Both the position numbers and the translations under genes were made by a program. This document shows positions 38,200 to 54,535 of a DNA stretch of 55,692 bases, piece after piece. Positions within the stretch are counted from its first letter, which is position 1. Each line of letters starts with the position of its first letter. Source of the DNA: a virus (lineage: Duplodnaviria; Heunggongvirae; Uroviricota; Caudoviricetes); the IMG/VR virus record IMGVR_UViG_2693429768_000005, one strand, 5' to 3'. The notes under the pieces are model-generated. The model saw nothing but the letters and a program-made list of their open reading frames with translations, was not told the DNA's origin and did not search any database.

Positions 38200-38213
38200 A
38201 AAAACCACCCCGA

Positions 38214-38390: not shown

Positions 38391-38566
38391 AATGCTCTCT
38401 CCTTTTAAGGTGATTTCTACGCATTTCAGCGCTGCCGGATTTTTAAAGAGCATTTTGTTTGCTTGAAGTATACAAAATGGATACGCCATAACAAGGTGAA
38501 AAGCGCCATTATGTGATCTATATCACGTAATGACGCCATTATGTAAACTTCAGTCCGGCAAAACGC

Positions 38567-39100
38567 TTATTCCCTACCCTCAAACGTGAAATAACAGCGC
38601 ATGATGATAGTGATCACCGTTACCGCTGCCATTTTTGAGATGAACTGCATCGCCGATATTTCCGGCATGAATGCCATAAACGATAGCGTAGGGAAAATCA
38701 ACGCATCCCCGATGGCTGAAGCTATATTTGCAGGCCAGCGTTTCGAATCAAAATCACCAGGCAAAACCCGGTAAACGCCGCCAGAAATAAGCGCACCGGA
38801 AACAACAGCAACGAATGACGCGATCGCCACCATTCCGGCGTCGTAATTTATCAGCACAGTGATTGCGCCAGCGGCGGCGCATGTTGTAGCCGACCATTTC
38901 AGGCCGCCGTCATATAACAGAAAGTCGCGGATCATCATATTTACACACACTGCGGCTACCGTAGTGACCGGAATCACCCACGGGCCGCAATGGTTAACAA
39001 TAAGGTTGATGATCACGAAAACGGCGACATAAACGCAGGCCAGTAACCTGTCAATTGCCACCTTTTCCATTTTGCTATCCCTCTTCTGACTGATACCCAA
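38567..39100 (-). CDS. multi-pass membrane protein of unknown function
   Basis: 4-5 hydrophobic helices. Confidence 0.45.
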   Translation of the reverse strand: MGISQKRDSKMEKVAIDRLLACVYVAVFVIINLIVNHCGPWVIPVTTVAAVCVNMMIRDFLLYDGGLKWSATTCAAAGAITVLINYDAGMVAIASFVAVVSGALISGGVYRVLPGDFDSKRWPANIASAIGDALIFPTLSFMAFMPEISAMQFISKMAAVTVITIIMRCYFTFEGRE

Positions 39101-39554
39101 AATTCAAATCAAGCAAATCAGTAGCGCAACGACATTGAGGGTTAATCTCTGAAGGAGATAAGCCATTACAGGATATTATAACTCCATCATTTACCATCCC
39201 ATCATTAATATTGGCGGCAGTGAACTGATTTTTCTTTTGCTCATTCTCCCGATCATTTAATATTTGCTCCGCTTTTAGTGCGCTGTAGCTGATTAAGTCA
39301 ACCAAAGTATCAGTAGGGTCAGAACCATTAGCCAAAATTGCCTCTAAACGCGCCTCCTTAAGACAAATCAACAGATCCCATACATCAAGTGGGGTTAAAT
39401 TTGCGCCCTTCTTAGCGTTGTAAATGGTGGCTATTTTTGGCGCTGATTTTTCTTCTTTTCTGTCGTAGCCGTTTTGTTTACCTCTTTGCTCTATTGTTTC
39501 TGCTGCAAGTCGTAATAAATCTGCTGCACTAGTCATTTTCTGCACCTCTTGCAT
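39075..39554 (-). CDS. hypothetical protein (159 aa) upstream of Dam
   Basis: ORF; no domain recognised. Confidence 0.4.
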   Translation of the reverse strand: MQEVQKMTSAADLLRLAAETIEQRGKQNGYDRKEEKSAPKIATIYNAKKGANLTPLDVWDLLICLKEARLEAILANGSDPTDTLVDLISYSALKAEQILNDRENEQKKNQFTAANINDGMVNDGVIISCNGLSPSEINPQCRCATDLLDLNFGYQSEEG

Positions 39555-40077
39555 ATAGCTCTTTACGTGTTATCTGCGTGAAAATACATTCATGTCTGCA
39601 CCGTGGATGCCAGATCAAAAACAAGCTCCCTTTGTTGTTTCCGCTCACTGGCTTACCAGTCGCAGCATTTATAAAAGCCAGCCGCCCGCGCGTTATTAAT
39701 CTGCATTCGTTTGCCGTCTCAACGCCGTTCATAAACCAGCTAACAGAAATGTCAGCGGGCAATAACATTACGCAACCGATGTGGTTTCGGCTGTGTTCAA
39801 GCGCCGCTTTATCAACGAATGGCCCCGGGTTCGAATATGGTGGATTCATCCAGACATACTCACCAGGCATTGCCACCGCTCCCCACGGATAATGCAGCGT
39901 GTCCATTTCTTCGGTTATATATCGCGGGATTAATGCGTTTGCCTTGTTTGCCGCCACGTCAGCGACAAATTCAAACTCACGATCCATTCCTCTAAAAACT
40001 GGTTTAGGTGTCTGCCACAGGTCTTTAATTTCCTTCGGCGTACTGCTGCCTCCAAAATCATTTTTCATTATGACCAC
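39529..40077 (-). CDS. phage DNA N6-adenine methyltransferase (Dam-like)
   Basis: 182 aa; motif VWMNPPYS (NPPY catalytic motif). Confidence 0.8.
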   Translation of the reverse strand: MVIMKNDFGGSSTPKEIKDLWQTPKPVFRGMDREFEFVADVAANKANALIPRYITEEMDTLHYPWGAVAMPGEYVWMNPPYSNPGPFVDKAALEHSRNHIGCVMLLPADISVSWFMNGVETANECRLITRGRLAFINAATGKPVSGNNKGSLFLIWHPRCRHECIFTQITRKELYARGAEND

Positions 40078-40080
40078 CCA

Positions 40081-40332
40081 CTAGAAATAGTCCTGTTCCG
40101 TTCCCCAACGGTTGTTCAAATATCCCACCAACCAGATAAAACGCTCAATACTGATTAGTGGGGCGACCTTGCGATAATGCTTTTCTAATATCAGCCGCGT
40201 AGCTTTATCGCTGTAGCCGTTTCTTTCTACCTCCGCTTTGCAGGCAGAAAGCGCTGCGCGGGCGGCAGCTTTTACGGCATTAAATTGCAGTTCTGACATA
40301 TTGAACAAAGCCATAGGATCACCATTCATCAC
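40081..40332 (-). CDS. hypothetical protein (83 aa)
   Basis: ORF. Confidence 0.35.
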   Translation of the reverse strand: MMNGDPMALFNMSELQFNAVKAAARAALSACKAEVERNGYSDKATRLILEKHYRKVAPLISIERFIWLVGYLNNRWGTEQDYF

Positions 40333-40555
40333 CCCAATCAGGCGCTACAGTCCAGCAAAAACCAATGAATGCGCTAACAGCCAATAAAGCGCGGGCTGCA
40401 AAAAGAATATTCCCAATGTCGTTAAATTCAGGCAGCGACCACGTAATAAACATATCCCCCAGCATGATAACACCGATAACAGTCAGGGCCGCCAGGAAAA
40501 CAAAAAGCGTAGCCAAAAGCCACACCCCCAACCAGTTAAAAAAGCTCTTAACCAT
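40319..40555 (-). CDS. hypothetical membrane protein (78 aa)
   Basis: two hydrophobic helices. Confidence 0.4.
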   Translation of the reverse strand: MVKSFFNWLGVWLLATLFVFLAALTVIGVIMLGDMFITWSLPEFNDIGNILFAARALLAVSAFIGFCWTVAPDWGDEW

Positions 40556-40556
40556 T

Positions 40557-40760
40557 TTAAACCTCGTCTATTACACCGCCTTGCACGCGTTCCTTAATAT
40601 CCCACACGTGAGGCAAGCATATTTCTTGATAATAGTGATCCGGCCTGCTGCCGAAATACCATTTACCATCCATATAAAAATAAACGCCAGAAAAATCTCC
40701 CGGCGCTGCTTTTGTTGCTGCTTCTGGAATTTTCCATTCTTTATAGCGTTTATACTTCAT
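40557..40760 (-). CDS. hypothetical protein (67 aa)
   Basis: ORF. Confidence 0.3.
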   Translation of the reverse strand: MKYKRYKEWKIPEAATKAAPGDFSGVYFYMDGKWYFGSRPDHYYQEICLPHVWDIKERVQGGVIDEV

Positions 40761-40941
40761 ACATTTTTACCGTCTGTTTTAGATCTTTTAATGTGCAAGG
40801 CATCAAGCGAAAATGCTGAACGCCTTTAATGATGCAGATTAGGTAAATGTCACCGATTGAGTTGTAGTAATAACATCCGCAATAACCGACACCAGCTAAT
40901 TTGGCGTTGTCCGGTAACTTATATTCTCCAACGCACTTCAT
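40750..40941 (-). CDS. hypothetical protein (63 aa)
   Basis: ORF. Confidence 0.3.
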   Translation of the reverse strand: MKCVGEYKLPDNAKLAGVGYCGCYYYNSIGDIYLICIIKGVQHFRLMPCTLKDLKQTVKMYEV

Positions 40942-41039
40942 AAATCACCTCATATGGTATTCAATAAACCACCTGATAAACAGGCATAAGGCAATAAAAC
41001 CCCAGCAACAGCACATATAAAACAATGTGTCGTCCATAA

Positions 41040-41258
41040 TTAAGCCTCAATAACACCGTAATCAAACGTGCCTAAATACCGTTCGATGCTTACAACCTCA
41101 ATACCATCAATGCACCGTTTCCACACAGACACCCGGCTTTCATTTTCCCGGAAGTGCATATTAGAAAGCACTTCATCGGCTGGATAGCCTTTCCCGGCGA
41201 CGTAGGCATCGTGACCTACTCCACCCTCAACACAATAAAGCATTAATTCGCGGGCCAT
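41040..41258 (-). CDS. hypothetical protein (72 aa)
   Basis: ORF. Confidence 0.35.
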   Translation of the reverse strand: MARELMLYCVEGGVGHDAYVAGKGYPADEVLSNMHFRENESRVSVWKRCIDGIEVVSIERYLGTFDYGVIEA

Positions 41259-41358
41259 CTTGTTTTTCCTCCGCGCCGTAAACCTTTTGATTTCAGTTCA
41301 CAAAACGGATTTACGATCACAACACAAAATGTATTTCTATGTGATCGCCATCACTATG

Positions 41359-41979
41359 TTAATGAAGTACGCGTTTTTCAGGTTCTGGCATTAGCTGTGC
41401 GTCTTTCCGCGCGTCATTAAGCACAGCTATAGCTACCTGTACACCTAAATCATTTGCGCGCATATTATTGCCAACCATTTCGCCGTAAAATAATGGCATG
41501 ATCGCCTTTACTTCTTCCTCTGTGTGACCTTCATCAATACACTTCTGTAACGCTTTAGCCTCGAATACTTTTTTCATTACGCCACGCACAGAATACAGCG
41601 CAACGCTACCCATATGATTTTCATCTAACGGGAAAATAACAGCACTTCCGAACGCCAGCGGGTCAATCTCTTCCGGTACTGGTACTCGCCCAAATTCTTC
41701 TTCCATTCGTTTTACGAAAGTGAGGCAGAAGACATAACGAGCTACGGCAGTTTTTTCTTCAGCGTTTAAAGACACATAATCGCGGATCGACGCGTCCATC
41801 ACAATATCAACAATCTGTAACGCCAGATTCAAATCAGCGTCATACGCACCAGCTTCCATATCTTTTAATACTTCGTGATAATCCTTCGTTTCCACTTCAT
41901 GAAAACTTGCATCTTCAGCATAACGAGTGATTAACATGCCATCGCTGCCGAGTGAATAAGCTGTTTTGATGTCGTTCAT
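41359..41979 (-). CDS. hypothetical acidic protein (206 aa)
   Basis: ORF; no domain recognised. Confidence 0.4.
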   Translation of the reverse strand: MNDIKTAYSLGSDGMLITRYAEDASFHEVETKDYHEVLKDMEAGAYDADLNLALQIVDIVMDASIRDYVSLNAEEKTAVARYVFCLTFVKRMEEEFGRVPVPEEIDPLAFGSAVIFPLDENHMGSVALYSVRGVMKKVFEAKALQKCIDEGHTEEEVKAIMPLFYGEMVGNNMRANDLGVQVAIAVLNDARKDAQLMPEPEKRVLH

Positions 41980-41991
41980 GATATTTATCCT

Positions 41992-42324
41992 TTATAGTGG
42001 GTGATGCCATTTCATTTCAGTTTCTGGATTGAACGGGTTTCCTTCACTTGAAAGGAATAAATCACGCTCCCGTTTTAGCTCTTCCTGGCTTATTTCTATT
42101 TCATCAATCTGACCGAACGATCCAGGCATCATCCGTTTTAAATCAGATAGCGGGCGCATAAGGCCGCAACCACGTAACAACATGTCTAACGCGAACTGTC
42201 TCCGCCCTGCCGCATCATTAAAGCGCCGAGAATAAGGAACAACCACGATCCTGCGCTCGAACTCAATAAATAGCGATAGCTTGTTAGTAGCTGAATCATA
42301 GCCTTTATGGAATTTAATTTTCAT
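41992..42324 (-). CDS. hypothetical protein (110 aa)
   Basis: ORF. Confidence 0.35.
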   Translation of the reverse strand: MKIKFHKGYDSATNKLSLFIEFERRIVVVPYSRRFNDAAGRRQFALDMLLRGCGLMRPLSDLKRMMPGSFGQIDEIEISQEELKRERDLFLSSEGNPFNPETEMKWHHPL

Positions 42325-42505
42325 TTAACACCTCGACGTATTGCTCAAGATGCCATTTACCAACCTCGTCATCTTCCTCATCAAATAATGTTACCTGACC
42401 ACCTGGCCCAAAAGAAAAGGCAGCTATAATAAATTTATACCCATACCACGTGCGGATCTTTTCGCCGCCTTTTAAATCTTTAACTTTCACTAATTTTATA
42501 GCCAT
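42314..42505 (-). CDS. hypothetical protein (63 aa)
   Basis: ORF. Confidence 0.3.
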   Translation of the reverse strand: MAIKLVKVKDLKGGEKIRTWYGYKFIIAAFSFGPGGQVTLFDEEDDEVGKWHLEQYVEVLNEN

Positions 42506-42768
42506 ACACCGAACATCCCATTCAGTCCGGCGAACAATTTCCGCCAGTGGTTTTCAGCATAAGCCCGGAACGGCTTAACGCGAACATTGCGGGCCTTCAG
42601 TTCAATATCATCAAAGTAGCGCGGTTCGATGATTGTTCCGTCCAGGTATTTAACCACTAGCGGGCGCTCTAGATCGTCATACATCTTATTCAGTACAACC
42701 AGGCCAGGGTCATCACGATATTCAGGCAACACAACAAGATCACCAGCCTTTGCATCCCATGTTTTCAT
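42496..42768 (-). CDS. hypothetical protein (about 90 aa)
   Basis: ORF; ATG overlapping stop of upstream mini-ORF. Confidence 0.35.
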   Translation of the reverse strand: MKTWDAKAGDLVVLPEYRDDPGLVVLNKMYDDLERPLVVKYLDGTIIEPRYFDDIELKARNVRVKPFRAYAENHWRKLFAGLNGMFGVWL

Positions 42769-42887
42769 CACAGCAATCCTCTGAAAATAAAGCTAACCAG
42801 CGCAGCAAATGCGCCACAAGAAACAACCACAAACAGGAAGCAAATAATGCAAAACGCGACAGTCACAATATCCTTACCGACTTTCAT
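42768..42887 (-). CDS. small single-helix membrane peptide (39 aa)
   Basis: MKVGKDIVTVAFCIICFLFVVVSCGAFAALVSFIFRGLL; GAGG SD. Confidence 0.4.
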   Translation of the reverse strand: MKVGKDIVTVAFCIICFLFVVVSCGAFAALVSFIFRGLL

Positions 42888-42895
42888 GATTGGCC

Positions 42896-43009
42896 TCACA
42901 TGTTAGTAATGAGTTTAATGATCGCTACCGTGATATAAAGAGATACGCTGAGATACAGCACGGCGATAGATAAAGCCGCAAGCAATGCGGCAATTTTTGC
43001 AAAGCTCAT
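42896..43009 (-). CDS. small single-helix membrane peptide (37 aa)
   Basis: MSFAKIAALLAALSIAVLYLSVSLYITVAIIKLITNM; ATG overlaps upstream stop. Confidence 0.4.
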   Translation of the reverse strand: MSFAKIAALLAALSIAVLYLSVSLYITVAIIKLITNM

Positions 43010-43245
43010 TTGCCACCCTCCGCAATTAACTTATCAAGCCATTTGTTATTAGCCAGCCGTTCTTTGTCACTACCAAAACTGTTTCTGCTTAGAAGCTCCT
43101 CTTTTGTTAATTGCGGCCACTTATCCGTCCACCCAGCCGACGTATCGAACTCATACAGACCGCCGTCAAAAGTAACAAAGTCATCAGCCGTGTCAGGCAC
43201 TTCTTTATCAACTTCTTTTTCTTCGATCATGATTTGATACCTCAT
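43006..43245 (-). CDS. hypothetical protein (79 aa)
   Basis: ORF. Confidence 0.35.
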   Translation of the reverse strand: MRYQIMIEEKEVDKEVPDTADDFVTFDGGLYEFDTSAGWTDKWPQLTKEELLSRNSFGSDKERLANNKWLDKLIAEGGK

Positions 43246-43524
43246 TAATCGTTAATGACCTGGCCCATACGCCCGCGATATTTGCGCATACGTGGATCGA
43301 CATATTCAGGCCAGTGCATATCCGGTTTTCTTTGCAGTGGGTAAAAACTTGCCTGCCAGTTGTCGAACCATATTTGTTTTGCGTACAGGTCACTAAATCT
43401 TTTTGCCATCCGTTCCGCTGCCGTGCCGCATAAAAAAAGCCCGCGATCGATTTGATCACGGGCTTCTTTTAATACTTGCTCTTTTGTTCGTGGTTGCGGT
43501 GGCGGTTTTAGATAATCACTCATC
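43245..43524 (-). CDS. hypothetical protein (about 93 aa)
   Basis: internal ATG avoiding overlap with ssb. Confidence 0.35.
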
Positions 43525-43539
43525 GCTAACACATTGATT

Positions 43540-43959
43540 CTAAAAAGGAATATCGTCGTCAAAGTCCATCGAAGGCGGATTATTCCCGTTATTATTCTGC
43601 TGCTGCGGCGGCGCTTTCTGCTGCTGTCCTTGCTGCTGGCCTTGTTGGTTAACATTCATGAATTCAAATTCGTTAACCGCCACTTCTACCGCAGTCCCCT
43701 TCGTGCCGTCGTTCCGGTCATATTGCCGAACATCCAGGCGACCGCTTACCACTATTTTTCCACCCTTACGGATATGTGGCGCTAATTTTTCCGCACGCTC
43801 GCCAAATATCAGGCAAGTGATCCACATTACCCGCTTATTATCACCGTAGCCATTCGTTACAGCTAACGGAAAACTACCAATCGCTTTTCCGTTTTGCGTG
43901 TAGCGAACTTCCATATCATTCCCGATATTACCGCCCAGTGTGATTGAATTTAAGCTCAT
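43540..43959 (-). CDS. ssb: single-stranded DNA-binding protein
   Basis: OB-fold N-terminus, Gln/Gly-rich linker and acidic tail DFDDDIPF. Confidence 0.9.
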   Translation of the reverse strand: MSLNSITLGGNIGNDMEVRYTQNGKAIGSFPLAVTNGYGDNKRVMWITCLIFGERAEKLAPHIRKGGKIVVSGRLDVRQYDRNDGTKGTAVEVAVNEFEFMNVNQQGQQQGQQQKAPPQQQNNNGNNPPSMDFDDDIPF

Positions 43960-44612
43960 TAACCGATCTCCCCGTTAAGCTCTTTTAAGCGAATGTCATA
44001 AACGTCTTTCGCTTTCTGTTGCTGTTCTGAATCTTTAGGCAGTAGTTTCCAGCACTTCCCGAAGATCTCGCGTAACTTGTTAGCGTCCTGCGCTTTCGCT
44101 GCCGCATCACAGAAACGCGCTAACACCTCATCAGGATTTGGCGGCGCTTTCTGCTGCTGTGGTTTCTGATTAGGTTGTTGTTTTGGTGGGGTTTTCTGCT
44201 GGCGAGGCTGCTGCCCTGTCTGCTTAGCGTATGCGTCAGTATCAGGATCTCGCGCATCGTCAATACAGAACAATCCGTTCAAAGCATATTTACGCGCGTA
44301 ACTTGATGTTGCTCCTGTTAACTGGCTTGCGTCCATTCCCTTCTTGCTTTCTTCCTCCCTGGCGTAAGCCGTTACCGCTATCTCATTCTCACCGTCGCTT
44401 AGTGTCGCAGTGGCTTTCACATAATAGCGATTGCCGATCAGGATAATTTCATCACTTACAGTCAGCGTAATACTTTGAAGCAGTGGTTTGACCGCTTCTA
44501 AAATATCCTCCGCCGACCTGTAATTGTATCCGCCGAAATTATTACGCTGATTTTTCGGCGCGTTCAGCGTTTGCTGAATCGTCCACAGTTTTTTATGTAA
44601 CTCTGTTTTCAC
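43959..44612 (-). CDS. erf: Erf-family single-strand annealing protein
   Basis: 217 aa; ERF-like N-terminal domain (recalled) with Gln/Pro-rich linker; adjacent to ssb; GTG start. Confidence 0.75.
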   Translation of the reverse strand: MKTELHKKLWTIQQTLNAPKNQRNNFGGYNYRSAEDILEAVKPLLQSITLTVSDEIILIGNRYYVKATATLSDGENEIAVTAYAREEESKKGMDASQLTGATSSYARKYALNGLFCIDDARDPDTDAYAKQTGQQPRQQKTPPKQQPNQKPQQQKAPPNPDEVLARFCDAAAKAQDANKLREIFGKCWKLLPKDSEQQQKAKDVYDIRLKELNGEIG

Positions 44613-44731
44613 TCTTTAATCTCCTTCGCTGTTAACACTATGTATAAGGCTTTATTCGCGGCGCTCCACATTTCGGCATCGTGAAGCATTTCCGCTACCG
44701 CAAGTTTGAATTGAAGCGCCTCGATAACCAT
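44609..44731 (-). CDS. hypothetical protein (40 aa)
   Basis: GGAGGT SD; stop overlaps erf start. Confidence 0.3.
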   Translation of the reverse strand: MVIEALQFKLAVAEMLHDAEMWSAANKALYIVLTAKEIKE

Positions 44732-44761
44732 AATGTAACCTCCGAATGTTTACATTTTGTA

Positions 44762-45052
44762 TTAATGGTAACGGACTTTATCCAGGGGTTTCTCCCCTAA
44801 ATGGCGTGGTTGCGTTGCGTGGTAGTAGCTGCCGCTTTCATTTTCCGTATACCATTTTACTGATCCTTTGCGACGTTCTTTAATGCTATTTGGTTTGCAC
44901 CTTTCCTCGTTTGCAAATCGAATAGCTTTATCCACATTGTCTGTTTTATTAATTGCAGGTGATGATTTTCTTTCGTTTTCTCTTTTTATCCTTCTGCGTT
45001 CCCTGGCGTTCATTTTGCTATCACATTTTCCATACATAATTGTAACGCTCAT
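44762..45052 (-). CDS. N-like transcription antiterminator (Arg-rich motif)
   Basis: MSVTIMYGK...NARERRRIKRENERK resembles P22 gp24 / lambda N Arg-rich motif (from memory); first gene of leftward operon beside cI. Confidence 0.6.
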   Translation of the reverse strand: MSVTIMYGKCDSKMNARERRRIKRENERKSSPAINKTDNVDKAIRFANEERCKPNSIKERRKGSVKWYTENESGSYYHATQPRHLGEKPLDKVRYH

Positions 45053-45394
45053 AATCTGATCTCCGTATATCCTTGATGAAACTTAATAAAAAATCATCTT
45101 CGTTAATTGCCGCACTTCCAGTGGCTGACCAGATTTTTAATGAGCGGCTTAACATCTTTCAACTAATCCCGCAATCATCGCCGTTCCCGGCGTGACCTTG
45201 CTCACTCCAAGCAAGCTGACTCGTCGCCTTGCGTGCGGTTTCGTGGGGGATGTAACGCTTTAAACACCCCATGCGCCTTGTTATCAGTGCCGCTTTCGGT
45301 CCCCCCATTGGGGAGTTACTCCACGGTTGACAAGGTGTTAAGCCTGATTTTTAAAGTGCCAGGAAGCCGCTTTTGTTACCTGCGCCCTTCCTTT

Positions 45395-45430
45395 GACTCG
45401 CAATATACGCCCCGTAAAACACCGAGTCAA
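45395..45430 (-). promoter_or_regulatory. candidate pL-like early promoter with flanking inverted repeat
   Basis: minus-strand TTGACT-N17-TATATT; 8-bp inverted repeat TTGACTCG/CGAGTCAA brackets it. Confidence 0.5.
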
Positions 45431-45521
45431 TCCATTTTGTATACTTTTTTAAAACATTTTATATGTTATTGATATTTAAACAATAAATAACGTTTTCTGT
45501 TTACGTTTTGGTGCTTTCATG

Positions 45522-45547
45522 GCAAAGAAAAGCCGCCATCCGGCGGC
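45522..45547 (-). terminator. rho-independent terminator after cI
   Basis: GCCGCC-atcc-GGCGGC hairpin followed by TTTTCTTTG on minus strand. Confidence 0.55.
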
Positions 45548-45553
45548 TAATGT

Positions 45554-46201
45554 TTATGGCAGGTTTACGATCTTCGCATCAACTACCACGCCTATGATTT
45601 TTGATTCTGGATTCATAGGGATTGGCGGATACAGCGGATTGAGCGAACGTAAAAGCCTTTGACCTCCATCAATAATCAACTGTTTAAACGTCGGTATCTG
45701 CCCTTCCTCAAGCTGGGCTATAACCAGTTTGCCGTCAATAGCTGGCGCGTGCGGGTCCACGAGTATCATCGTCCCCGCCGGGATGCTCAACCCCTGCGGC
45801 GCGTTCATTGATTCACCTTTGGCAACCAGCCAGTAACTATCATCTGAACAAATAACGCTAGTCGTAACGTGTGGTAATGCTGATCGCCTTGTGTCATCCA
45901 TATTGTTTACTGTATCCTTCCAGTCAATAACCGGGTAACTACCTAAATCACGCGGCGGTGCGGCCTGAAGTGTATTAGAAACAGAATCATCAATGACCAT
46001 ACCATCATGTGTAACAGTGAACTGCCGACGACCAAGCGCCCGCATAATCCGCGCAATATCTTCAAGATTTGGCTCGCGGCGACCGTTCAGCCAGTGTGAC
46101 AGGCCGCCTTTAGTTATCCCCATGAGATCTGCGAGTGAATCCTGACTCATGCCCTGCGCCCGCATGAGCTGCTTTGCTAAGTCATACCATTTTGTTTTCA
46201 T
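45554..46201 (-). CDS. cI: CI-like repressor (HTH plus S24 LexA-type peptidase domain)
   Basis: 215 aa; N-terminal HTH (SQDSLADLMGITKGGLSHWLNGRREP) and C-terminal autoprotease region with Ser (KGESM) and Lys (TFKQL). Confidence 0.85.
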   Translation of the reverse strand: MKTKWYDLAKQLMRAQGMSQDSLADLMGITKGGLSHWLNGRREPNLEDIARIMRALGRRQFTVTHDGMVIDDSVSNTLQAAPPRDLGSYPVIDWKDTVNNMDDTRRSALPHVTTSVICSDDSYWLVAKGESMNAPQGLSIPAGTMILVDPHAPAIDGKLVIAQLEEGQIPTFKQLIIDGGQRLLRSLNPLYPPIPMNPESKIIGVVVDAKIVNLP

Positions 46202-46506
46202 GTCGCTACCCTATAACCTCAAAAAGTTTGATGCAAGTCACAAAACGTGTATTTTAAGCCTTGATCTTAAAATTCCATTTTGTAAACTTGCAGACAAGGT
46301 AAGGCCATACTTGCAAAGACGCAAGGAAAAAGATAACGGAAGGCACAAAAAGGCACATACCTTAAGCTCTTTAAAAATCCGGTGTCGCTGCGAAGCGAAA
46401 AACAAATATCACGCAACGGCGGGATCTGTTGAGCGGTCAGTCACTGCTATCTAATGCTAATGGGATGCCCGCCCGCGCGTTCATTTTAACCATAGGAGAA
46501 AATACA

Positions 46507-46761
46507 ATGAGCATGAACATGATTAGCGAAGTATGGAAAGTAAAACTTAACAGCCCGATTCAAAAACTGGTCTTAATGGCTCTGGCTGAAAAGGCAGATA
46601 ACCGCCGTCACGTCATGGTATCACGACAAGAAATTGCAAAAATGTGTGAACTTCCTGTTCATACGGTACATGATGCCTTCGCCGCGTTAATGCATAAAGG
46701 GTTTGTTTGTCGTCTTGATGCGTTCAGTGATGTCTATGTAGTGATGTTACCGGAGGAATGA
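46507..46761 (+). CDS. putative HTH DNA-binding regulator (Cro/CII position)
   Basis: first rightward ORF after immunity intergenic region; GGAGAA SD; helix-turn-helix-like segment. Confidence 0.4.
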   Translation: MSMNMISEVWKVKLNSPIQKLVLMALAEKADNRRHVMVSRQEIAKMCELPVHTVHDAFAALMHKGFVCRLDAFSDVYVVMLPEE

Positions 46762-46764
46762 TCT

Positions 46765-47811
46765 ATGAAGTGGTTTAAGCATGATAGCGATGCGAACCGC
46801 GATGAAAAACTTCAAAACGTCTTGCTTGATTATGGCCTGGAAGGGTACGGGCTTTATTGGTATTGCCTCGAACTAATAACTTATGACGTAGATCAGCACA
46901 ATCTAACTTTTGACCTACGACATGACGCGAGAATCATTGCGCGAAACGTCGGATCGACTGAAAAACGTATAGAAGAAATGATGAAATACTTCATCGAAAT
47001 TGGTTTGTTTGAATGTTCTCAAGGCCACATAACTTGTTTAAAGTTATTGAAAAGGCTGGACCAATCAATGACTTCTAAAAGCGCATACAGGGCAGCCATA
47101 AACACAGCGAAGGAGCAATTAAAATTAGAAAAGTTAATCAATCCAACACAAAAAGGTCATGATAGGGTCATGACCGGGTCAGGAAAGGGTCATGAATTAG
47201 AATTAGAAGTAGAAGAAGAAAGAGAAGAAGAAAAGAAAAATATAAAAAGAAAAGAAGTCAATCAGGACGGTGATTTCCAGGTAAGCGAGGCGGCTTATCG
47301 TTGCTTAGCCTTCTACAACGACAAGGCTGGATGCAAATGTCGTGATGCTAAGCCATTCATCGAACTACTGACAGAAACAAAAACACGTAAAGCGTATACG
47401 GAGGATGAGATCACATTAGTGATTGAGTGGGCTTTAACGCAATGGCGTAGCCGTGGCGGAACACCTAAACCTATCAACATTTGCCGGGTAACTAAATTTG
47501 ACGGGTATCTTGCTGATGCTGAACAATGGCGCAATCTGTCAGTTACTGTAAACGCTGCCGATGTGGTAAATGAGTTTAACATCACGTTTGATGGCCTGTT
47601 GCCACCTGCTGAACTGGATCGGGATCTTGAACGTAAAATATATGCGTTCACTGACTACCTGAAAGACAAAAGCATTAACGGATTTATCGCCTACTTTGAA
47701 GCATTCAAGAGCAAGGCTTCAGACTTTTACTTCGGCGATGGCTTCACAGCGACACTTGATTTCCTGCTTAAACCAAAAACGCTACGCGATACACGCGCAG
47801 GCGCTCTTTGA
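46765..47811 (+). CDS. replication initiation / replisome organizer protein
   Basis: N-terminus MKWFKHDSDANRDEKL...GLEGYGLYWYCLELI typical of phage replisome-organizer N-domain (from memory). Confidence 0.6.
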   Translation: MKWFKHDSDANRDEKLQNVLLDYGLEGYGLYWYCLELITYDVDQHNLTFDLRHDARIIARNVGSTEKRIEEMMKYFIEIGLFECSQGHITCLKLLKRLDQSMTSKSAYRAAINTAKEQLKLEKLINPTQKGHDRVMTGSGKGHELELEVEEEREEEKKNIKRKEVNQDGDFQVSEAAYRCLAFYNDKAGCKCRDAKPFIELLTETKTRKAYTEDEITLVIEWALTQWRSRGGTPKPINICRVTKFDGYLADAEQWRNLSVTVNAADVVNEFNITFDGLLPPAELDRDLERKIYAFTDYLKDKSINGFIAYFEAFKSKASDFYFGDGFTATLDFLLKPKTLRDTRAGAL

Positions 47812-47945
47812 CCAACCACGATCCACAAAAACCCAAAATAACCCGCAAAACAAGCTCGCCAGCGAGATAAATCGCATGTGGTGCTACACTTGCTTACCTT
47901 TTTGCGATTAGCTCGTTATAGAGCGTTACAGAGAGGATTTCAAAA

Positions 47946-48047
47946 ATGGACGGTAAACACGTTTTTGCCCTGGTCTTTGCCATCGCTGCGGCAATCGCTG
48001 TTAACGTCGCTTTGTTCGGCGGTTTGTTCCTTCTAGTCAATCCATAA
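47946..48047 (+). CDS. small single-helix membrane peptide (33 aa)
   Basis: GAGAGGA SD; MDGKHVFALVFAIAAAIAVNVALFGGLFLLVNP. Confidence 0.4.
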   Translation: MDGKHVFALVFAIAAAIAVNVALFGGLFLLVNP

Positions 48048-48178
48048 CCTACCCACCATTCTGTAAATCAAAAATTAGCCACCTGAGAGCGTCTATAACG
48101 CAATAAGACACTGCAACCTGTGCAAACGGGTTACGCGGTGGAATTTTGCGTTGTAGAGCGTTTTACGGAGAAAATACA

Positions 48179-48919
48179 ATGTCTGATTTAATGGTTTTTG
48201 ATGTCGATAGCGAAGTATTAATGATTTCATCGCGTGAAATAGCAGAAGCAACAGGCAAGGATCATTCTTCTGTGGTTGTGCGTGATATTAAAAACATGCT
48301 GATCGATTTAGGGTTTACTGAGCATGATTTTTATCCTGCAAAAATGCAGGATTATGAATTTATAGGGTTTTTGTTTAAGTACAAGCACTACAACGGTCGC
48401 AACGTCATTGATGAGGTTTTGCTAAATAAAGAGCTAACAATGTGCTTGATCACTGGCTATGACGTTAAGCAACGCATGAAGGTAATTAAACGCGTTAAAG
48501 AGTTGGAGGAGGCGCAACACAAACTAGCTTTGCCGGATTTCACTGATCCGGTTGCGGCAGCCCGCGCATGGGCGGATGAGGTAGAGCAAAAATTATTAGT
48601 TAAGCAAGAAAATGAACGGCTTACACTGGTTAACAAACAGCTTGCGCCAAAAGCTGCTGTATGTGACGCGATAGTCAAAAACGATATGCACCGCACGGCT
48701 TCAGAGGTAGCTAAACCGCTGGGAATGTCAGCCGTAAAATTAAACAGAAAACTTTCGGCGGTTGGTGTTTATGATCTTCGCTGTCGCCGCCGTGTATTCA
48801 GTCAGTGGTTTATTGATGAGGGCTACGGTGAAATGAGGGTAACTCACGATGGATATGAGCAGGCTGTATTCACTGCTAAAGGACAAGTATGGATTACTGA
48901 GCTTTTAACTTGTAACTAA
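48179..48919 (+). CDS. phage antirepressor (Rha-like N-domain, KilAC-like C-domain)
   Basis: MSDLMVFD...SREIAEATGKDHSSVVRDI pattern; domain identity recalled from memory. Confidence 0.6.
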   Translation: MSDLMVFDVDSEVLMISSREIAEATGKDHSSVVVRDIKNMLIDLGFTEHDFYPAKMQDYEFIGFLFKYKHYNGRNVIDEVLLNKELTMCLITGYDVKQRMKVIKRVKELEEAQHKLALPDFTDPVAAARAWADEVEQKLLVKQENERLTLVNKQLAPKAAVCDAIVKNDMHRTASEVAKPLGMSAVKLNRKLSAVGVYDLRCRRRVFSQWFIDEGYGEMRVTHDGYEQAVFTAKGQVWITELLTCN

Positions 48920-48953
48920 GTATACAATTTGTTATTCGTGAGGAAATGACACT

Positions 48954-50084
48954 ATGTCACAAAGAAAAATCAGCGATGAGCAATTGATCGCTGAATATAA
49001 CAACGGTTTAACGTACAAGCAGATCGCTGAAAAATATGGCATGTCAAAACGCAACGTCGAGCGGCTAGGCGCAAAACTGGCGAAACGCGGTTTAATATCC
49101 ACGCGTCGCGCACCGGGTTTTGGCGTCAATGCTGAGTCATTGCTCGTCGATAAGGATGGCAATGTGATCATGCGCTGGATTAAAACAGCCCGTGACCGCG
49201 ACGAAATGGAACAGTTAATGGAAGCGGCCCGCGACGCTTTCACGGATGAAATACCACGCGCGGAGGCTGTGCCAGTGCCTGAAATTGATTTTCAAAAAAG
49301 CCTAGCCCTTTATCCGGTGTTTGATCTGCATATCGGGGCGCTTGCTCATAAAGCTGAATGCGGCGAGAGCTACGACACTGGGATCGCTGAGCGCGTGTTG
49401 AATGACTTCTTTGACTACGCTGTTGGCGCTGCTCCGATGTCTGAAAAAGCCGTACTGCTCCTCGGTGGCGATCTGCTTCATTCTGACGGTATGGTCCCGG
49501 TGACGCCAATAAGTGGGCACATTCTTGATCAAGATAGTCGCTACGCAAAACTTGTTTATGTGGCGATCCGGTCTGTCCGGCGGGCGGTAGGTAAAATGTT
49601 GTTAAATCATAAGGATGTTGAAATCCAGGTGTTATCAGGCAATCACGATCAGTCTGGTATGATTTGGCTACGTGCGGCGCTGGCGGCTTTTTACGAAGAT
49701 GAACCGCGCGTGACGGTTGATGTGTCACCTGCTATCGTCCACCACACGCAGTACGGCAAAACATTCCTTGCTTACCACCACGGGCACACTATCAAAAAGC
49801 CGGAAAATTTATTGTCTGCTTGCGTAGCTGACTGGCGTGAGGATTTCGGCAAGTCGAAATATGTTTACGTCCATGTCGGACATTTGCACCATAAATCAGT
49901 AACAGAATCATCTATAGGCATAGTTGAACACCACGGCACGTTAGCGGGCAAAGACGCTTATTCAACTAATGGAGGATGGAGATCGCAACGTTGCGCTGCG
50001 GTTATCCTTTACAGTCCTGATTATGGCGAAATTGGTCGCTTTGTATATAGGCCTGAAATGGTGGGGTGTCATGATGTGGGATGA
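48954..50084 (+). CDS. HTH-metallophosphoesterase fusion protein
   Basis: N-terminal HTH-like LTYKQIAEKYGMSKRNVER; C-terminal phosphoesterase motifs DLH, GDLLH, GNHD, HHGH, GHLHH. Confidence 0.55.
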   Translation: MSQRKISDEQLIAEYNNGLTYKQIAEKYGMSKRNVERLGAKLAKRGLISTRRAPGFGVNAESLLVDKDGNVIMRWIKTARDRDEMEQLMEAARDAFTDEIPRAEAVPVPEIDFQKSLALYPVFDLHIGALAHKAECGESYDTGIAERVLNDFFDYAVGAAPMSEKAVLLLGGDLLHSDGMVPVTPISGHILDQDSRYAKLVYVAIRSVRRAVGKMLLNHKDVEIQVLSGNHDQSGMIWLRAALAAFYEDEPRVTVDVSPAIVHHTQYGKTFLAYHHGHTIKKPENLLSACVADWREDFGKSKYVYVHVGHLHHKSVTESSIGIVEHHGTLAGKDAYSTNGGWRSQRCAAVILYSPDYGEIGRFVYRPEMVGCHDVG

Positions 50085-50577
50085 TTTATTTACATATAGC
50101 GACGGCGTTCTATATTGGTCTTGTAACCGTGCAAATAACAAAATAAAAGCAGGTAGCGTGGCTGGATGTAAACATTATCGCGGATATTGGACTGTACGCG
50201 TTAATGGTATTTGTTGCACATGGCGTCACCGCATTATCTGGGAAATGTTTAACGGCCCTATTCCTGATGGAATGGAAATAGATCACATAAATCATATACC
50301 TGGTGACGATAGAATCGAAAACTTAAGGATGGTGACAAGGAAGGAGAATAACAGAAACAAAACAATGCCATCAAGTAATACTAGCGGATGCGTTGGCGTT
50401 ACGTGGAACAAGAAAACCAATAAATGGCGTGCGCAAATAGGTATAAGGGGGTCTGATGGGAAAAAGAAAACAATATACGTTTATTACGGTGACTCATTTG
50501 ATGATGCCGTAAAAGCAAGAAAAGAAGCTGAAAGAATGTATAACTTTCATAGCAATCACGGTATTTCTTTACCCTGA
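50071..50577 (+). CDS. HNH homing-type endonuclease with AP2 domain (second copy)
   Basis: HRIIWEMFNGPIPDGMEIDHINH plus AP2-like GVTWNKKTNKWRAQI; start overlaps upstream stop. Confidence 0.8.
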   Translation: MMWDDLFTYSDGVLYWSCNRANNKIKAGSVAGCKHYRGYWTVRVNGICCTWRHRIIWEMFNGPIPDGMEIDHINHIPGDDRIENLRMVTRKENNRNKTMPSSNTSGCVGVTWNKKTNKWRAQIGIRGSDGKKKTIYVYYGDSFDDAVKARKEAERMYNFHSNHGISLP

Positions 50578-50611
50578 ATATTCCATTTTGTAAACCGGAG
50601 GCAATAACATA

Positions 50612-52027
50612 ATGGTAACTGAGCAAATGAACTCACTACGGCAGGAACGTGAAGCGTCAGTTATCGGCGGGCTGCTGTTAGGCGGCCTAACTCCTAACGC
50701 ACAAGATGTTCTCGCCACTCTTGATCCTGAAGTGTTCACGATTCCGCTGTATAAACGTGCGTTTGAAGTTATCCGGGCGCAAGCCAGAAACAGAAATCTT
50801 ATCGACGCGTTATTGGTTGGCGATGAGATTGGCAATGAAAACTTTGTACCGCTAATGCAAACGGCGCGATCGTGCCCGTCTGCTGCCAACCTGAAGGGAT
50901 ACGCACAGCTACTACGTGAAGAGCACCAGCGGCGGCAGATGTTGGAACTCATCGACGATATGCGCTACAAACTGGAAACGGGGACGCTTGAGGTCGTCAA
51001 AGAGACGATGAAAGACTTTGATTCCCGGTATTCAAAATTGAAGGTAACGAAAGACAAGATCATTCCGGTGTTGTTGCGCGATGCGGTACAGGAATACACG
51101 GAGGTGTTAAGCAAACGCATGGAATGCGGTGTCAATTCTGACAACATCAAAACAGGGATAGAACCACTCGACGAAATGTTAGGCGGCATTAACGCTACTG
51201 ATCTGGTGCTTCTCGCCGGGCGCCCTGGGTCTGGTAAATCTGCGTTGGCGCTGGCAATTGCCCGCGCTGCTGCTGAACGCCCTTACCCTGGCAGCAAGGA
51301 TCAGCGGGTTGGCGTTTTGTTCTTCACGCTTGAAATGTCACTCGATCAGATGACTGAACGCGCTATAGCTGGCGCTGGTAATTTATCAACCGACTGTCTG
51401 CGTAATCCGGTAAAACTTGATGATGAGGGGTGGGCGCATGTTGGTCAGGGTATGAGCGCACTTGCTAATCTTGACGTGTGGATCGTTGACGCATCGCAGT
51501 TAACGGTTGAGGAAATACGCGCCACAACGGAACGGATGAAACAGGAGCATCCCAACCTGGGTATGGTAATGATTGACTACATCGGGTTGATGAAGCTGGC
51601 TAAGGCTGAACGTCATGATCTCGCCGTAGGGCAATTATCATGGTCGTTGAAGATGATGGCGAAAGAATTGCGCGTACCGGTGTTGGCGCTGGCGCAATTA
51701 TCCCGCCGCGTTGAGGAACGACCGAACAAGCGTCCTAACAATTCTGATCTGCGCGATTCCGGTAATCTTGAGCAGGACGCTGACAGGATAATCATGGTAT
51801 ACCGCGATGGCTACTACGATGAGCAGTCTGTAGCCCGCGAATATATGGAAATCATTGTATCTAAAAACCGTCACGGCAAATCTGGCACTGTTTACCAGCG
51901 GTTTGATGACAACGGCAATATCTTACCATGCGACCAGGCCCGCGCGGCTGCGGCGTGTATTCAGTCTATGAATCATCGTACAAGCAGATTTAACCAACGA
52001 AACAACCAGAATAACGCATCCTTTTAA
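50612..52027 (+). CDS. replicative DNA helicase (DnaB family)
   Basis: 471 aa; Walker A GRPGSGKS, DnaB-like N- and C-domains. Confidence 0.85.
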   Translation: MVTEQMNSLRQEREASVIGGLLLGGLTPNAQDVLATLDPEVFTIPLYKRAFEVIRAQARNRNLIDALLVGDEIGNENFVPLMQTARSCPSAANLKGYAQLLREEHQRRQMLELIDDMRYKLETGTLEVVKETMKDFDSRYSKLKVTKDKIIPVLLRDAVQEYTEVLSKRMECGVNSDNIKTGIEPLDEMLGGINATDLVLLAGRPGSGKSALALAIARAAAERPYPGSKDQRVGVLFFTLEMSLDQMTERAIAGAGNLSTDCLRNPVKLDDEGWAHVGQGMSALANLDVWIVDASQLTVEEIRATTERMKQEHPNLGMVMIDYIGLMKLAKAERHDLAVGQLSWSLKMMAKELRVPVLALAQLSRRVEERPNKRPNNSDLRDSGNLEQDADRIIMVYRDGYYDEQSVAREYMEIIVSKNRHGKSGTVYQRFDDNGNILPCDQARAAAACIQSMNHRTSRFNQRNNQNNASF

Positions 52028-52103
52028 TCAATATGAGCAAACGGCTTACCAGAAAGTTTACCGCTTTCTGGTGGCTGTTATCGCGTTTAAAGCGAGGCTG
52101 AAA

Positions 52104-52631
52104 ATGAAAACTTCATACCAACAACAAATAATTGATTTTTTAAATGACGCTGTTATTTCAGGTGAGGGAACGATAGTTAAATCTATTCCTGGGCCGGAAG
52201 GTGAAATAATTTGCGCTTTGGATGCTTTAGTTTCTGATGGCGTTATTATCAAAGTAGATCTAAATAGTAAAAGATTATCATATTGCTTGAAGTCAGTAAG
52301 AGAAATGGCGATAAGGGATATAATCCCTTTGTTTTCAAATAGTAGCGGGTATTTTTCAGCGGAAGATGTTAAAAATGAATTGAATATTAATATAAACAAA
52401 GGAAAGGTCGGGAGAATATTGCGGATGTTAGGAAGTGAGAACCTATTAACTGTTAATAAGTTTGACGGTAAATATTTTTTCAGAAACGCGCGTTTTTATG
52501 GTTATTCAAATGTTATCGCATTTAATTTTAGTAACTTATTAAACGAATACCGTAAAAATAACGGCCTGCTACCGGATAAACCAATATTTGAGATCGAAAA
52601 ACTTAACGGCGAAACGGGGTTGGAATTATGA
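52104..52631 (+). CDS. hypothetical protein in AT-rich island (possible tandem winged-helix)
   Basis: by-eye composition markedly more AT-rich than flanks; no enzymatic motif. Confidence 0.4.
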   Translation: MKTSYQQQIIDFLNDAVISGEGTIVKSIPGPEGEIICALDALVSDGVIIKVDLNSKRLSYCLKSVREMAIRDIIPLFSNSSGYFSAEDVKNELNININKGKVGRILRMLGSENLLTVNKFDGKYFFRNARFYGYSNVIAFNFSNLLNEYRKNNGLLPDKPIFEIEKLNGETGLEL

Positions 52632-52834
52632 GACGGGTAATTTTTTATTCAGTTGAAACGTTTGTCGACGATACGCGCGTTTATTATCCGTGGGAAGTAT
52701 ACGACGCAAAGGTGTATACACCGCCACTGATGCGGAAATATAAACACGTAAAATTTAACCGGGTTTTCGTGCCAATGCGCGATGCATTACGGGCGCTGCG
52801 TGGGGAATTAAGAAACACAATGCGGATTGTGTAA
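52628..52834 (+). CDS. hypothetical protein (68 aa)
   Basis: ORF coupled to previous. Confidence 0.35.
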   Translation: MRRVIFYSVETFVDDTRVYYPWEVYDAKVYTPPLMRKYKHVKFNRVFVPMRDALRALRGELRNTMRIV

Positions 52835-52843
52835 GGGGGAATC

Positions 52844-53071
52844 ATGAACAAGGATTTAGAATTGACCGTGGAGGATTTAAGCACGATCGCGGAATACAAG
52901 CGCGGCGGTGATCCTGATAAACCTGTTACGGTTGATATGAAATATTTAAAAGGCGCTTTTATGACTTCTTCAAGATTGATAAGTCTTAAAGCAATTATAA
53001 AGGCGCGCTGGGAAAGTTGGCAGGAATACAAAGCGAAAAATAAGGTGAAAAGAAATAATGCGGCAAATTAG
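52844..53071 (+). CDS. hypothetical protein (75 aa)
   Basis: ORF. Confidence 0.35.
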   Translation: MNKDLELTVEDLSTIAEYKRGGDPDKPVTVDMKYLKGAFMTSSRLISLKAIIKARWESWQEYKAKNKVKRNNAAN

Positions 53072-53486
53072 ATTTGAGATAGTCAACGACGCCGTGAAAG
53101 AAAACGCTATCAGGCAGATAAGAGAGATCCAGCCTGATAGCAAAAGCCCGCTGATAATTACCATCCAGGAGAAAACCCGCTCGCTAAGCCAAAACGCGTT
53201 GCTTTGGGCGCTGTTAACCGACATTAGCGATCAGGTTAATTGGTACGGTAAGAAGCTGTCGCCGGAAGACTGGAAAGCGGTATTTACTGCCGGGCTTAAG
53301 AAATATGGCGTCGTCCCTAACCTGGATAAATCCGGCTTTGTTGTATTGGGGACATCAACCAGCCGGATGAGTAAATCAGAATTCAGTGAACTAATCGAGC
53401 TGATCTACTCGTTCGGCGCTGAACATGATGTTCAATGGTCTGGCGATACGAAATTAAACGAGGAATTCATAAAACGCTGGGGGTAA
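53058..53486 (+). CDS. ninB: NinB (Orf-family recombination mediator)
   Basis: aligns to lambda NinB: ...IQEKTRSLSQNALLWALL.DIS.QV.W.G...VPNL...GFVVLG.STSRM...EF.ELIELI..FG. Confidence 0.8.
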   Translation: MRQIRFEIVNDAVKENAIRQIREIQPDSKSPLIITIQEKTRSLSQNALLWALLTDISDQVNWYGKKLSPEDWKAVFTAGLKKYGVVPNLDKSGFVVLGTSTSRMSKSEFSELIELIYSFGAEHDVQWSGDTKLNEEFIKRWG

Positions 53487-53488
53487 TA

Positions 53489-53665
53489 ATGGCGCGTTAT
53501 TACATGGCTAAACCTACAGGAATTTTGTATAAGGTTGATGGCGAATATGTTTATTACTTCCACAACCAGGCGCGGGAGTGGCGATTGTGTCACGCGCACT
53601 TCAAGCACGAAATAGAAAATCACCCTGAATACTTTATCAAAGTTGACAATGTAACGGTGGCGTAA
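53489..53665 (+). CDS. hypothetical protein (58 aa)
   Basis: ATG 3 bp after ninB stop. Confidence 0.35.
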   Translation: MARYYMAKPTGILYKVDGEYVYYFHNQAREWRLCHAHFKHEIENHPEYFIKVDNVTVA

Positions 53666-53666
53666 T

Positions 53667-54317
53667 ATGGCAAATAAAACACCTCGTGCAATAGGCACAA
53701 TGTTCCACCGCTTCCGTGGTGATATTCAGCCTTTTGAAGTAACCACGTTTTCAAGTTATTACGATTTTGGGACGGAGTATTACGCCGGATCTAAGGTAGG
53801 CGGTGAATCTTATACGCTGATGGCTAATACGTGGCGCTTTGTGCGTTACTCTGAAAAGGATGGTGACGGTATGAATAAAGAAAGTGAAATCATTGATGAA
53901 TTAATCGAAGATGAGCGCCATGATTGCGATGCGCCGGAAGTTACGGAATGGAAACCAGGAGAAAAGCCGCCGTGCGGCGTGTGGCTTGATTGTATTGGAT
54001 TAGCAAGTGATAGAGTGATTGATGTCGTTAAGTTTTTCTACCTGGGCGATAAGTGGTCTATTGCTCACAGTAAGTTAGAAACGGGTATAGAAACACCGAT
54101 TGCATGGAAACAATACTCATACCGCATTCACATTGACCCGAAAGAAAAAGCAATGACACGAATTGCGTTTGCGCTGGCTGTTGAGGTTATTGGTGGAGAT
54201 GCGGCAAAAGAGATTAACTTTAACCGCGACAACGAATTTTCGCGCGATTGGCGCAATATGGCAAAAGCCATTATTAATGGCGATATTCCTTTTACTAATT
54301 ACAATGGTGATGAGTAA
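53667..54317 (+). CDS. hypothetical protein (216 aa)
   Basis: ORF; no domain recognised. Confidence 0.4.
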   Translation: MANKTPRAIGTMFHRFRGDIQPFEVTTFSSYYDFGTEYYAGSKVGGESYTLMANTWRFVRYSEKDGDGMNKESEIIDELIEDERHDCDAPEVTEWKPGEKPPCGVWLDCIGLASDRVIDVVKFFYLGDKWSIAHSKLETGIETPIAWKQYSYRIHIDPKEKAMTRIAFALAVEVIGGDAAKEINFNRDNEFSRDWRNMAKAIINGDIPFTNYNGDE

Positions 54318-54535
54318 TGGATAAGATCGGGACAATACTTATTAACCGTGAGCAAGTGCAAAAAATGTTAGGCGGGCTTAGCAAGTCCGCCTTTTTTAAG
54401 CTCGTTAAAAAATGGAAAGAAGCGGGAACTCCTTTCCCTGAACCTGTAAAGGGGATGCCAGCATTAAAGCGCGGGGGATCTCTTTACCGTTATCAGGACG
54501 TTATTTCATTTTGTAAATCGATGGGCTTCATGTAG
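54317..54535 (+). CDS. excisionase/AlpA-like HTH protein
   Basis: 72 aa; adjacent to integrase; HTH-like INREQVQKMLGGLSKSAFFKLVKK. Confidence 0.45.
   Translation: MDKIGTILINREQVQKMLGGLSKSAFFKLVKKWKEAGTPFPEPVKGMPALKRGGSLYRYQDVISFCKSMGFM

Follow-up and report, generated by a model that had tools for sequence, protein, structure and literature searches.

A helix-turn-helix metallophosphoesterase beside DnaB in an mEpimmI-type coliphage: an ordinary member of the PHROG 704 / T1 gp16 family with a putative role in DNA processing

The phosphoesterase gene, its phage and the HNH insertion

The window analyzed here is a stretch of 55,692 nucleotides of tailed-phage (Caudoviricetes) DNA, and it carries at 48954..50084 on the plus strand an open reading frame of 376 amino acids, starting with ATG, in exactly the place given by the initial annotation. 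A Shine-Dalgarno-like GAGGA can be read from the sequence at 48940..48944 (+), 9 nt 5′ of the start codon, and the open reading frame encodes a helix-turn-helix (HTH) metallophosphoesterase (MPE) of the PHROG 704 / T1 gp16 family. A gene for a homing endonuclease with HNH_3 and AP2 domains (50071..50577, +) is inserted in its 3′ end, and a DnaB-type replicative helicase (50612..52027, +; Pfam DnaB_C, E=8e-76), the conserved downstream partner of the gene in mEpimmI-type prophages, lies beyond.

The window phage is a temperate coliphage of the mEpimmI type, with cI, Erf, NinB, NinG, a Q-like antiterminator, a J-type tail and an integrase. The mEpimmI group was defined as ‘non-lambdoid’ in a study (PMC11893012) that mentions the phosphoesterase gene neither in the paper nor in its supplements. 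The layout of the regulatory region (36289-55692) is unusual for a lambda-like phage and consistent with that group: the leftward arm, on the minus strand, runs from cI (45554-46201, -) through Erf, a methyltransferase, NinG and the Q-like antiterminator to the lysis and structural genes, and the rightward replication operon leads to NinB (53058-53486), a small HTH protein and the integrase at the right end of the window. The replication region (46429-47811 and 52071-52631) comprises a 110-aa winged-helix initiator-like protein, a 348-aa Lin1244_N/O-like protein and DnaB; no helicase loader or primase is recognizable in it, and no PHROG matches the 186-aa open reading frame directly after DnaB. 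A 481-aa open reading frame (1-1446, +) occupies the left edge of the window, on the strand opposite to the adjoining tail-fibre genes; it gives no match to any PHROG at E<=1e-5 and is possibly cargo or flanking host sequence.

The initial annotation had described an HNH endonuclease overlapping the phosphoesterase stop codon. The overlap is real, and its origin is the insertion of the HNH gene. The longest reading frame of that gene begins at 49969 and the mEp515 annotation starts it at window position 50023; it matches Pfam HNH_3 (PF13392) with E=1.7e-21, in addition to AP2, and phrog_99 aligns from residue 33 of the long frame. None of the 30 listed E. coli prophage alleles (35 matching genomes) has the HNH gene. 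These HNH-less alleles end in …GRFVYYPEYSIL (..YYPEYSIL) and dnaB follows 18 nt on, as measured in strain MIN12. Alignment to the HNH-less allele identifies a remnant of the original phosphoesterase 3′ end (..LYPEYSIL*) at 50565..50593 (+), 3′ of the insertion and with the HNH stop codon inside it.

The insertion is accompanied by a divergent 3′ tract of the phosphoesterase gene (49794..50084, +), delimited by windowed identity to the HNH-less MIN12 allele, which is approximately 99.8% over the first 840 nt and 60-85% over the last ~290 nt. Because such a drop in identity beside an insertion matches the pattern expected of homing endonuclease import, nucleotide comparison points to a probable co-conversion tract brought in together with the HNH gene. 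The phosphoesterase reading frame and all invariant residues have been kept. Compared with other family members, nothing essential is different in the window copy, although its 3′ end is recombinant and seven C-terminal residues, derived from the HNH insertion, are unique to it. HNH homologues (42-60% identity) occupy the same position in T1, in a second mEpimmI allele (L024) and in a distant lineage (L090); in T1, ST15 follows ST16/gp16 (L092, 40822-42510) and is 42% identical to the window HNH protein (E 1e-33). The 3′ end of the phosphoesterase gene is therefore a recurrent homing site in phages that are not related to one another.

Domain architecture and the nearest characterized enzymes

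The HTH-like N-terminal domain reported initially is borne out by sequence and model alike. Residues 10-58 return eleven sub-threshold Pfam helix-turn-helix matches (Rrf2, sigma-70 region 4, MarR and HTH_23/28, among others), the same region of relatives reaches Pfam E values of 4e-7 to 7e-6, and the segment comprising aa 1-57 is basic, with a pI of 10.3. Structure prediction, which had been suggested as a check, was performed with AlphaFold2 on a 32-sequence alignment and produced a model (mean pLDDT 78.7, core mostly >90) with an N-terminal three-helix HTH (aa 8-44; 48975..49085, +; helices 8-16, 21-28 and 32-44), a beta-hairpin followed by a long helix, and an alternating strand/helix core from residue 114 with the predicted beta-sandwich fold of metallophosphoesterases. 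The hairpin and helix form a conserved linker (aa 58-97; 49125..49244, +), defined by model secondary structure and by invariant columns of the 32-sequence alignment (G69, W75 and K77). Conservation is unevenly distributed across the family, being lowest in the HTH, whereas the MPE core and active site do not vary.

The metallophosphoesterase core (aa 114-370; 49293..50063, +) contains the complete set of calcineurin-like motifs (DxH, GD, GNH[D/E], H and GHxH) claimed for it. Scored over 32 family sequences, all five are invariant, and they are collinear with those of T4 gp47, the phage homologue of SbcD/Mre11. Motif I (D124-L-H126; 49323..49331, +) pairs with GDWH of gp47. Motif II (G172-D173-L-L-H176-S-D178; 49467..49487, +), with invariant G, D, H and D, has the Mre11-like GDLFH form and aligns with GDLFHSS of P. 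furiosus Mre11 and GDIFD of gp47, the Mre11 alignment not being significant by itself. Motif III (G229-N-H-D232, extended by the invariant W238-L239; 49638..49670, +) pairs with EGNHD of Mre11 and GNHD of gp47; motif IV is H276-G-H278 (49779..49787, +), and motif V (G309-H310-L-H312; 49878..49889, +) pairs with GHFH of gp47. Fold superposition suggests that these residues may form a binuclear metal site. The most conserved stretch of the family is an insertion specific to it between motifs II and III (aa 177-210, SDGxxPVTPxSGHxLDQDxRYxK; 49482..49583, +), with T184, P185, L191, D192, D194, R196, K199 and R209 invariant; about 22 of its residues face a gap in the gp47 alignment, and model confidence is low at 179-200. 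The window protein does not match Pfam Metallophos (PF00149/PF12850) even at E<=10, and PF00149 is matched weakly by 8 of the 32 relatives (best E 4e-4), a result we attribute to the insensitivity of these models to a divergent clade rather than to a missing feature.

To place the core among known enzymes, we compared a family profile built from the window protein and 140 representatives (141 sequences) by hhalign. The profile aligns with T4 gp47 at 53% probability (E 1.3e-4) over 184 columns, with the five motifs in register. Searches of PDB sequences with the single sequence and with the profile gave no significant match; the sole non-HTH matches in hmmsearch were Mre11 chains (E~0.55, not significant), in which motifs II, III and V are collinear. 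The protein shares with SbcD/Mre11 an MPE nuclease domain with a motif II histidine of the GDLFH type, the invariant H176. The similarity is remote, however, and in contrast to T4 gp47, E. coli SbcD and archaeal Mre11 the window protein lacks a C-terminal capping domain (its C-terminus lies ~6 residues past the last core strand of the model, and gp47 residues 219-339 are unmatched) and a Rad50/SbcC/gp46 partner, while adding the N-terminal HTH and the conserved ~22-aa II-III insertion. A scan of every window open reading frame of 180 aa or longer found no Rad50/SbcC/gp46-type ATPase; 18 of these frames are classed as structural, packaging, recombination or regulatory, and two (1-1446 and 53667-54317) have no match. 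No such ATPase lies beside the phosphoesterase in the other lineages examined. The catalytic domain is most likely nearest to the nuclease branch (SbcD/Mre11/PolD-DP1) of the calcineurin-like superfamily. Annotation as DP1-type, after the subunit of archaeal PolD that acts as a 3′-5′ proofreading exonuclease, reflects fold-level resemblance only, the phage protein having neither a DP2 partner nor an OB domain.

Family distribution and gene neighborhoods

The window protein matches phrog_704 (‘DNA repair exonuclease’) at E=7e-143 with aa 4-370 aligned to profile positions 2-389 of 390, and gp16 (ST16) of phage T1 is annotated in the same family. With tblastn, the phosphoesterase was detected in 2,038 phage records, in 1,940 of them over >=80% of its length, at identities of 64-66% in T1-like Drexlerviridae, ~61% in Klebsiella Webervirus, 40-45% in Jersey-like Salmonella phages, 36% in Rhodobacter Casjensviridae and 32% in Vibrio phages. 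An exhaustive search of 1.84 billion representative proteins returned 4,594 clusters at E<=1e-3 and 1,005 at E<=1e-30; almost all are 370-420 aa long and have an N-terminal extension; the alignments mostly begin at about aa 50-70 of the window protein, and the extension is missing from some relatives, such as the 311-aa P0248. Members share the full-length HTH-linker-MPE architecture, all motifs and a size of ~370-390 aa. The two-part organization on which the initial annotation based its term ‘fusion protein’ is thus real, but it is no one-off: the same arrangement recurs in ~2,000 phage records, and since HTH and MPE occur together in thousands of phages we regard it as the standard architecture of the family and not as a fusion peculiar to this genome.

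The window phosphoesterase is accordingly an ordinary PHROG 704 / T1 gp16 family member, and by itself it adds little that is new, since a routine copy is already held in phage databases and in GenBank, where gp12 of Escherichia phage mEp515 (annotated as hypothetical) is 98.9% identical to it by tblastn. The name ‘DNA repair exonuclease’ is an annotation by remote similarity only. We found no functional or essentiality data for the family in the literature on Drexlerviridae/phosphoesterase, Jerseyvirus, PHROG 704, T1 host-DNA degradation, CRISPRi-ART and transposon screens.

The initial annotation had placed the gene within a replication module, and in mEpimmI prophages this holds. The segment is carried by 35 of 5,426 complete E. 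coli genomes, and the phosphoesterase adjoins DnaB in 30 of the 30 E. coli records listed for these 35 matching genomes, as it does in all 21 class-A loci of a 92-locus neighbor set. The upstream slot (48146-48919 in the window) is variable across E. coli prophages, where it holds KilAC antirepressor, BRO, Rha-family or zinc-ribbon proteins; the phosphoesterase-DnaB pair is constant despite the varying upstream gene, and the phosphoesterase appears to be a core gene beside DnaB in these prophages. Elsewhere the setting differs. In T1-like phages Dam methylase and small open reading frames precede the phosphoesterase and the lysis cassette follows it; in Jerseyvirus the gene sits in an opposite-strand island within the tail genes; in Rhodobacter phages it is the last gene of the late operon, and in Vibrio phages it comes after an OB-fold protein. 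A conserved replication-module context is ruled out by the annotated neighborhoods of six lineages and by neighbor clustering of the 92 loci, and the replication-module setting is therefore lineage-specific.

Two metagenomic phages of alphaproteobacterial type (L008, 5172-12129; L010, 1034-8942) have the phosphoesterase tightly packed on the same strand in a tail block, with the gene for a tail assembly chaperone on one side and, on the other, that for a 541-aa protein which matches PHROG 511 (‘internal virion protein’). Their gene order raises the possibility of late expression, or of a protein that may be virion-associated or injected.

Clustering of the 92 loci revealed only two partners common to different lineages: a PNKP-type HAD phosphatase (PF25109, phrog_415) at position +1 and a dNMP kinase (phrog_139) at +2, in 21-22 loci from three identity classes. 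Stop and start codons overlap in the Jersey class, in which the genes appear to be translationally coupled. The HAD and dNMP kinase set is found on the same strand in L006 (1978-4212), L070 (7001-9170), L084 (7007-9324) and 18-19 more loci, from Webervirus, some Jersey-class phages and more distant phages, with the HAD gene often mis-annotated as ‘polynucleotide kinase’. A related inconsistency is seen in the T5-like phages L094 and L096, where the gene at the Dmp position, after A1, is ‘polynucleotide kinase’ or ‘deoxynucleoside-5′-monophosphatase’ depending on the record. T5 Dmp and the Webervirus HAD phosphatase that follows the phosphoesterase both have the HAD motif I DLDGT, and the T5-like records suggest that one kind of HAD phosphatase has been annotated inconsistently. 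The trio is absent from the window phage and from T1, in which pnk is 35 kb off.

Proposed function and alternative interpretations

Since the core is nearest to nucleases, an HTH is fused to it and no Rad50 partner is present, we propose a DNA-tethered nuclease. That the protein is a two-metal phosphodiesterase or nuclease acting on DNA is a proposition on which we find the evidence evenly poised, and its specific biological role is less certain than the DNA-nuclease activity. In the proposed mechanism, the HTH and the hairpin-helix linker would hold the enzyme on DNA, in place of the Rad50/SbcC clamp of Mre11/SbcD, and the putative binuclear site (D124, H126, D173, N230, H276/H278, H310 and H312, helped by the Mre11-type H176 and by H231) would hydrolyze DNA phosphodiester bonds at ends or irregular structures. 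The window gene, situated just before DnaB, would be expressed as part of the early rightward replication transcript, and its product would most likely trim DNA ends or intermediates, aiding phage replication and recombination. Among virulent relatives, this activity would probably feed nucleotide turnover too, given that the HAD phosphatase and dNMP kinase adjoin the gene in those phages. The T4 gp46/47 enzyme serves recombination and host-DNA breakdown alike.

The first alternative, which we consider unlikely, is a host-takeover DNase that degrades the bulk chromosome or competitor DNA, silencing host genes (defenses included) and supplying dNMPs, as a fused equivalent of the A2 and A1 proteins of T5. 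For the degradation of host DNA, A1 is reported to be both necessary and sufficient, and A2 to be its essential DNA-binding partner (bioRxiv 10.64898/2026.04.02.716235). Both systems combine a phage MPE with a DNA-binding function next to an HAD phosphatase gene, the T5 order A2-A1-Dmp paralleling HTH-MPE followed by the HAD phosphatase, and in 22 loci a dNMP kinase comes after the phosphoesterase gene. The II-to-III spacing is also similar (56 aa in A1, 57 in the window protein), and NHDx5WL and HGH are common to both. Further support comes from mycobacteriophage A10ZJ24 Gp48, a cluster A MPE with demonstrated phosphodiesterase and DNase activities that is expressed early and disrupts the host genome (PMC12287305); Gp48 establishes that phage MPEs can be nucleases, being a proven DNase that lacks an HTH. 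Like the window protein it is a phage-encoded five-motif MPE, but it is much shorter and has motif I at residue 10, and Mycobacterium phages are not among the leading host genera of the tblastn matches at E<1e-5.

The resemblance to T5 is not backed by evidence of specific homology. A1, at 556 aa, has a long N-terminal half that is unrelated, and A2 is a separate gene; hhalign against A1 orthologues gave probabilities of 8-27% (13-27% with the deep family profile), either confined to motif III or out of register; phrog_1745, the A1 family, is not matched by the window protein, and the 50 best viral fold matches do not include A1. Profile comparisons with nine A1 orthologues and with the 141-sequence family profile, and the viral fold search, lend no support to specific homology with A1/A2. 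Bulk destruction moreover fits poorly with the early operon of a temperate phage, switched on before the lysis-lysogeny decision, and with retention of the gene in resident prophages of at least 30 E. coli genomes. Also improbable, to about the same degree, is a broader conjecture in which the family would be a Rad50-independent, self-targeting Mre11-like nuclease whose fused, fast-diverging HTH gives selectivity for DNA sequence or state, so that host or rival-phage DNA is attacked and the phage’s own is spared; it would be a one-polypeptide equivalent of T5 A2 and A1, with the II-III insertion as a new substrate gate and the mEpimmI copy coupled to the DnaB replisome.

An action against nucleotide-based host defense signals, raised by the initial annotation, received no positive support. 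As an anti-defense phosphodiesterase, the protein would destroy the cyclic (oligo)nucleotide signals of CBASS, Pycsar, Thoeris or type III CRISPR, a role we judge distinctly unlikely. A basic HTH fused to it would be of no obvious use to a small-molecule hydrolase, the best profile match is a nuclease, and the gene appears to be a core gene beside DnaB. PADLOC, used to look for a defense or anti-defense class, yielded nothing meaningful, its matches being weak (E>=0.02) and limited to the HTH region. The characterized anti-signaling enzymes Acb1 (2H) and Apyc1 (metallo-beta-lactamase) have other folds than the predicted MPE.

An end-healing phosphoesterase, removing 2′,3′-cyclic or 3′-phosphates as the MPE domain of bacterial Pnkp does and working with the PNKP-type HAD phosphatase and the kinase in the repair of DNA or RNA that has been nicked or cleaved, would account for the +1 neighbor of 21 loci (PF25109 HAD_PNKP, E 2e-18; phrog_415) and for the apparent coupling in the Jersey class. 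We nonetheless consider it very unlikely: the +2 gene matches a dNMP kinase and not a polynucleotide kinase, no ligase is seen nearby, the window phage and T1 lack the trio, and the Mre11-type motif II and the fold ranking favor a diesterase or nuclease. A replication accessory factor that loads or organizes the phage DnaB, with the MPE as a scaffold like the inactive B-subunits of eukaryotic polymerases, is slightly more doubtful again, because the catalytic residues are strictly invariant, unlike those of the inactivated B-subunits, and because the gene is not beside a DnaB-type helicase in most of the other lineages sampled (T1-like, Webervirus, Jersey-like, Rhodobacter and Vibrio).

We hold it to be highly improbable that the protein is a transcription regulator whose function resides in the HTH, with the MPE as a sensor or modulator. 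The HTH does resemble those of sigma-70 region 4, MarR and Rrf2, in T1-like phages the lysis cassette comes directly after the gene, and T5 A1 reportedly binds RNA polymerase (bioRxiv 10.64898/2026.04.02.716235); conservation, however, is concentrated in the core and active site instead of the HTH, and relatives such as P0248 dispense with the N-terminal extension. A Ser/Thr/Tyr protein phosphatase like lambda NinI is scarcely credible, for although both are calcineurin-like proteins encoded by temperate coliphages, NinI is a 221-aa PPP-family enzyme of the protein phosphatase rather than the nuclease branch, with another motif II and no HTH, and hhalign of the family profile against it gave 0.8%, which amounts to no detectable profile similarity and agrees with the distinction from NinI drawn initially.

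The DNA-tethered nuclease that we favor is of interest at the level of the family, a common, catalytically intact, partner-less and Mre11-like predicted enzyme with its own DNA-binding domain. Sequence data place it, with catalytic residues intact, in ~2,000 phages (T1, Webervirus, Jerseyvirus, Chi-like and many marine phages) and ~4,600 metagenomic clusters. Work on the family would shed light on how DNA ends or host DNA are processed by small phages that have no Rad50 partner, and learning the nature of the nuclease and the target of its HTH would improve the annotation of many phages that are therapeutic candidates.
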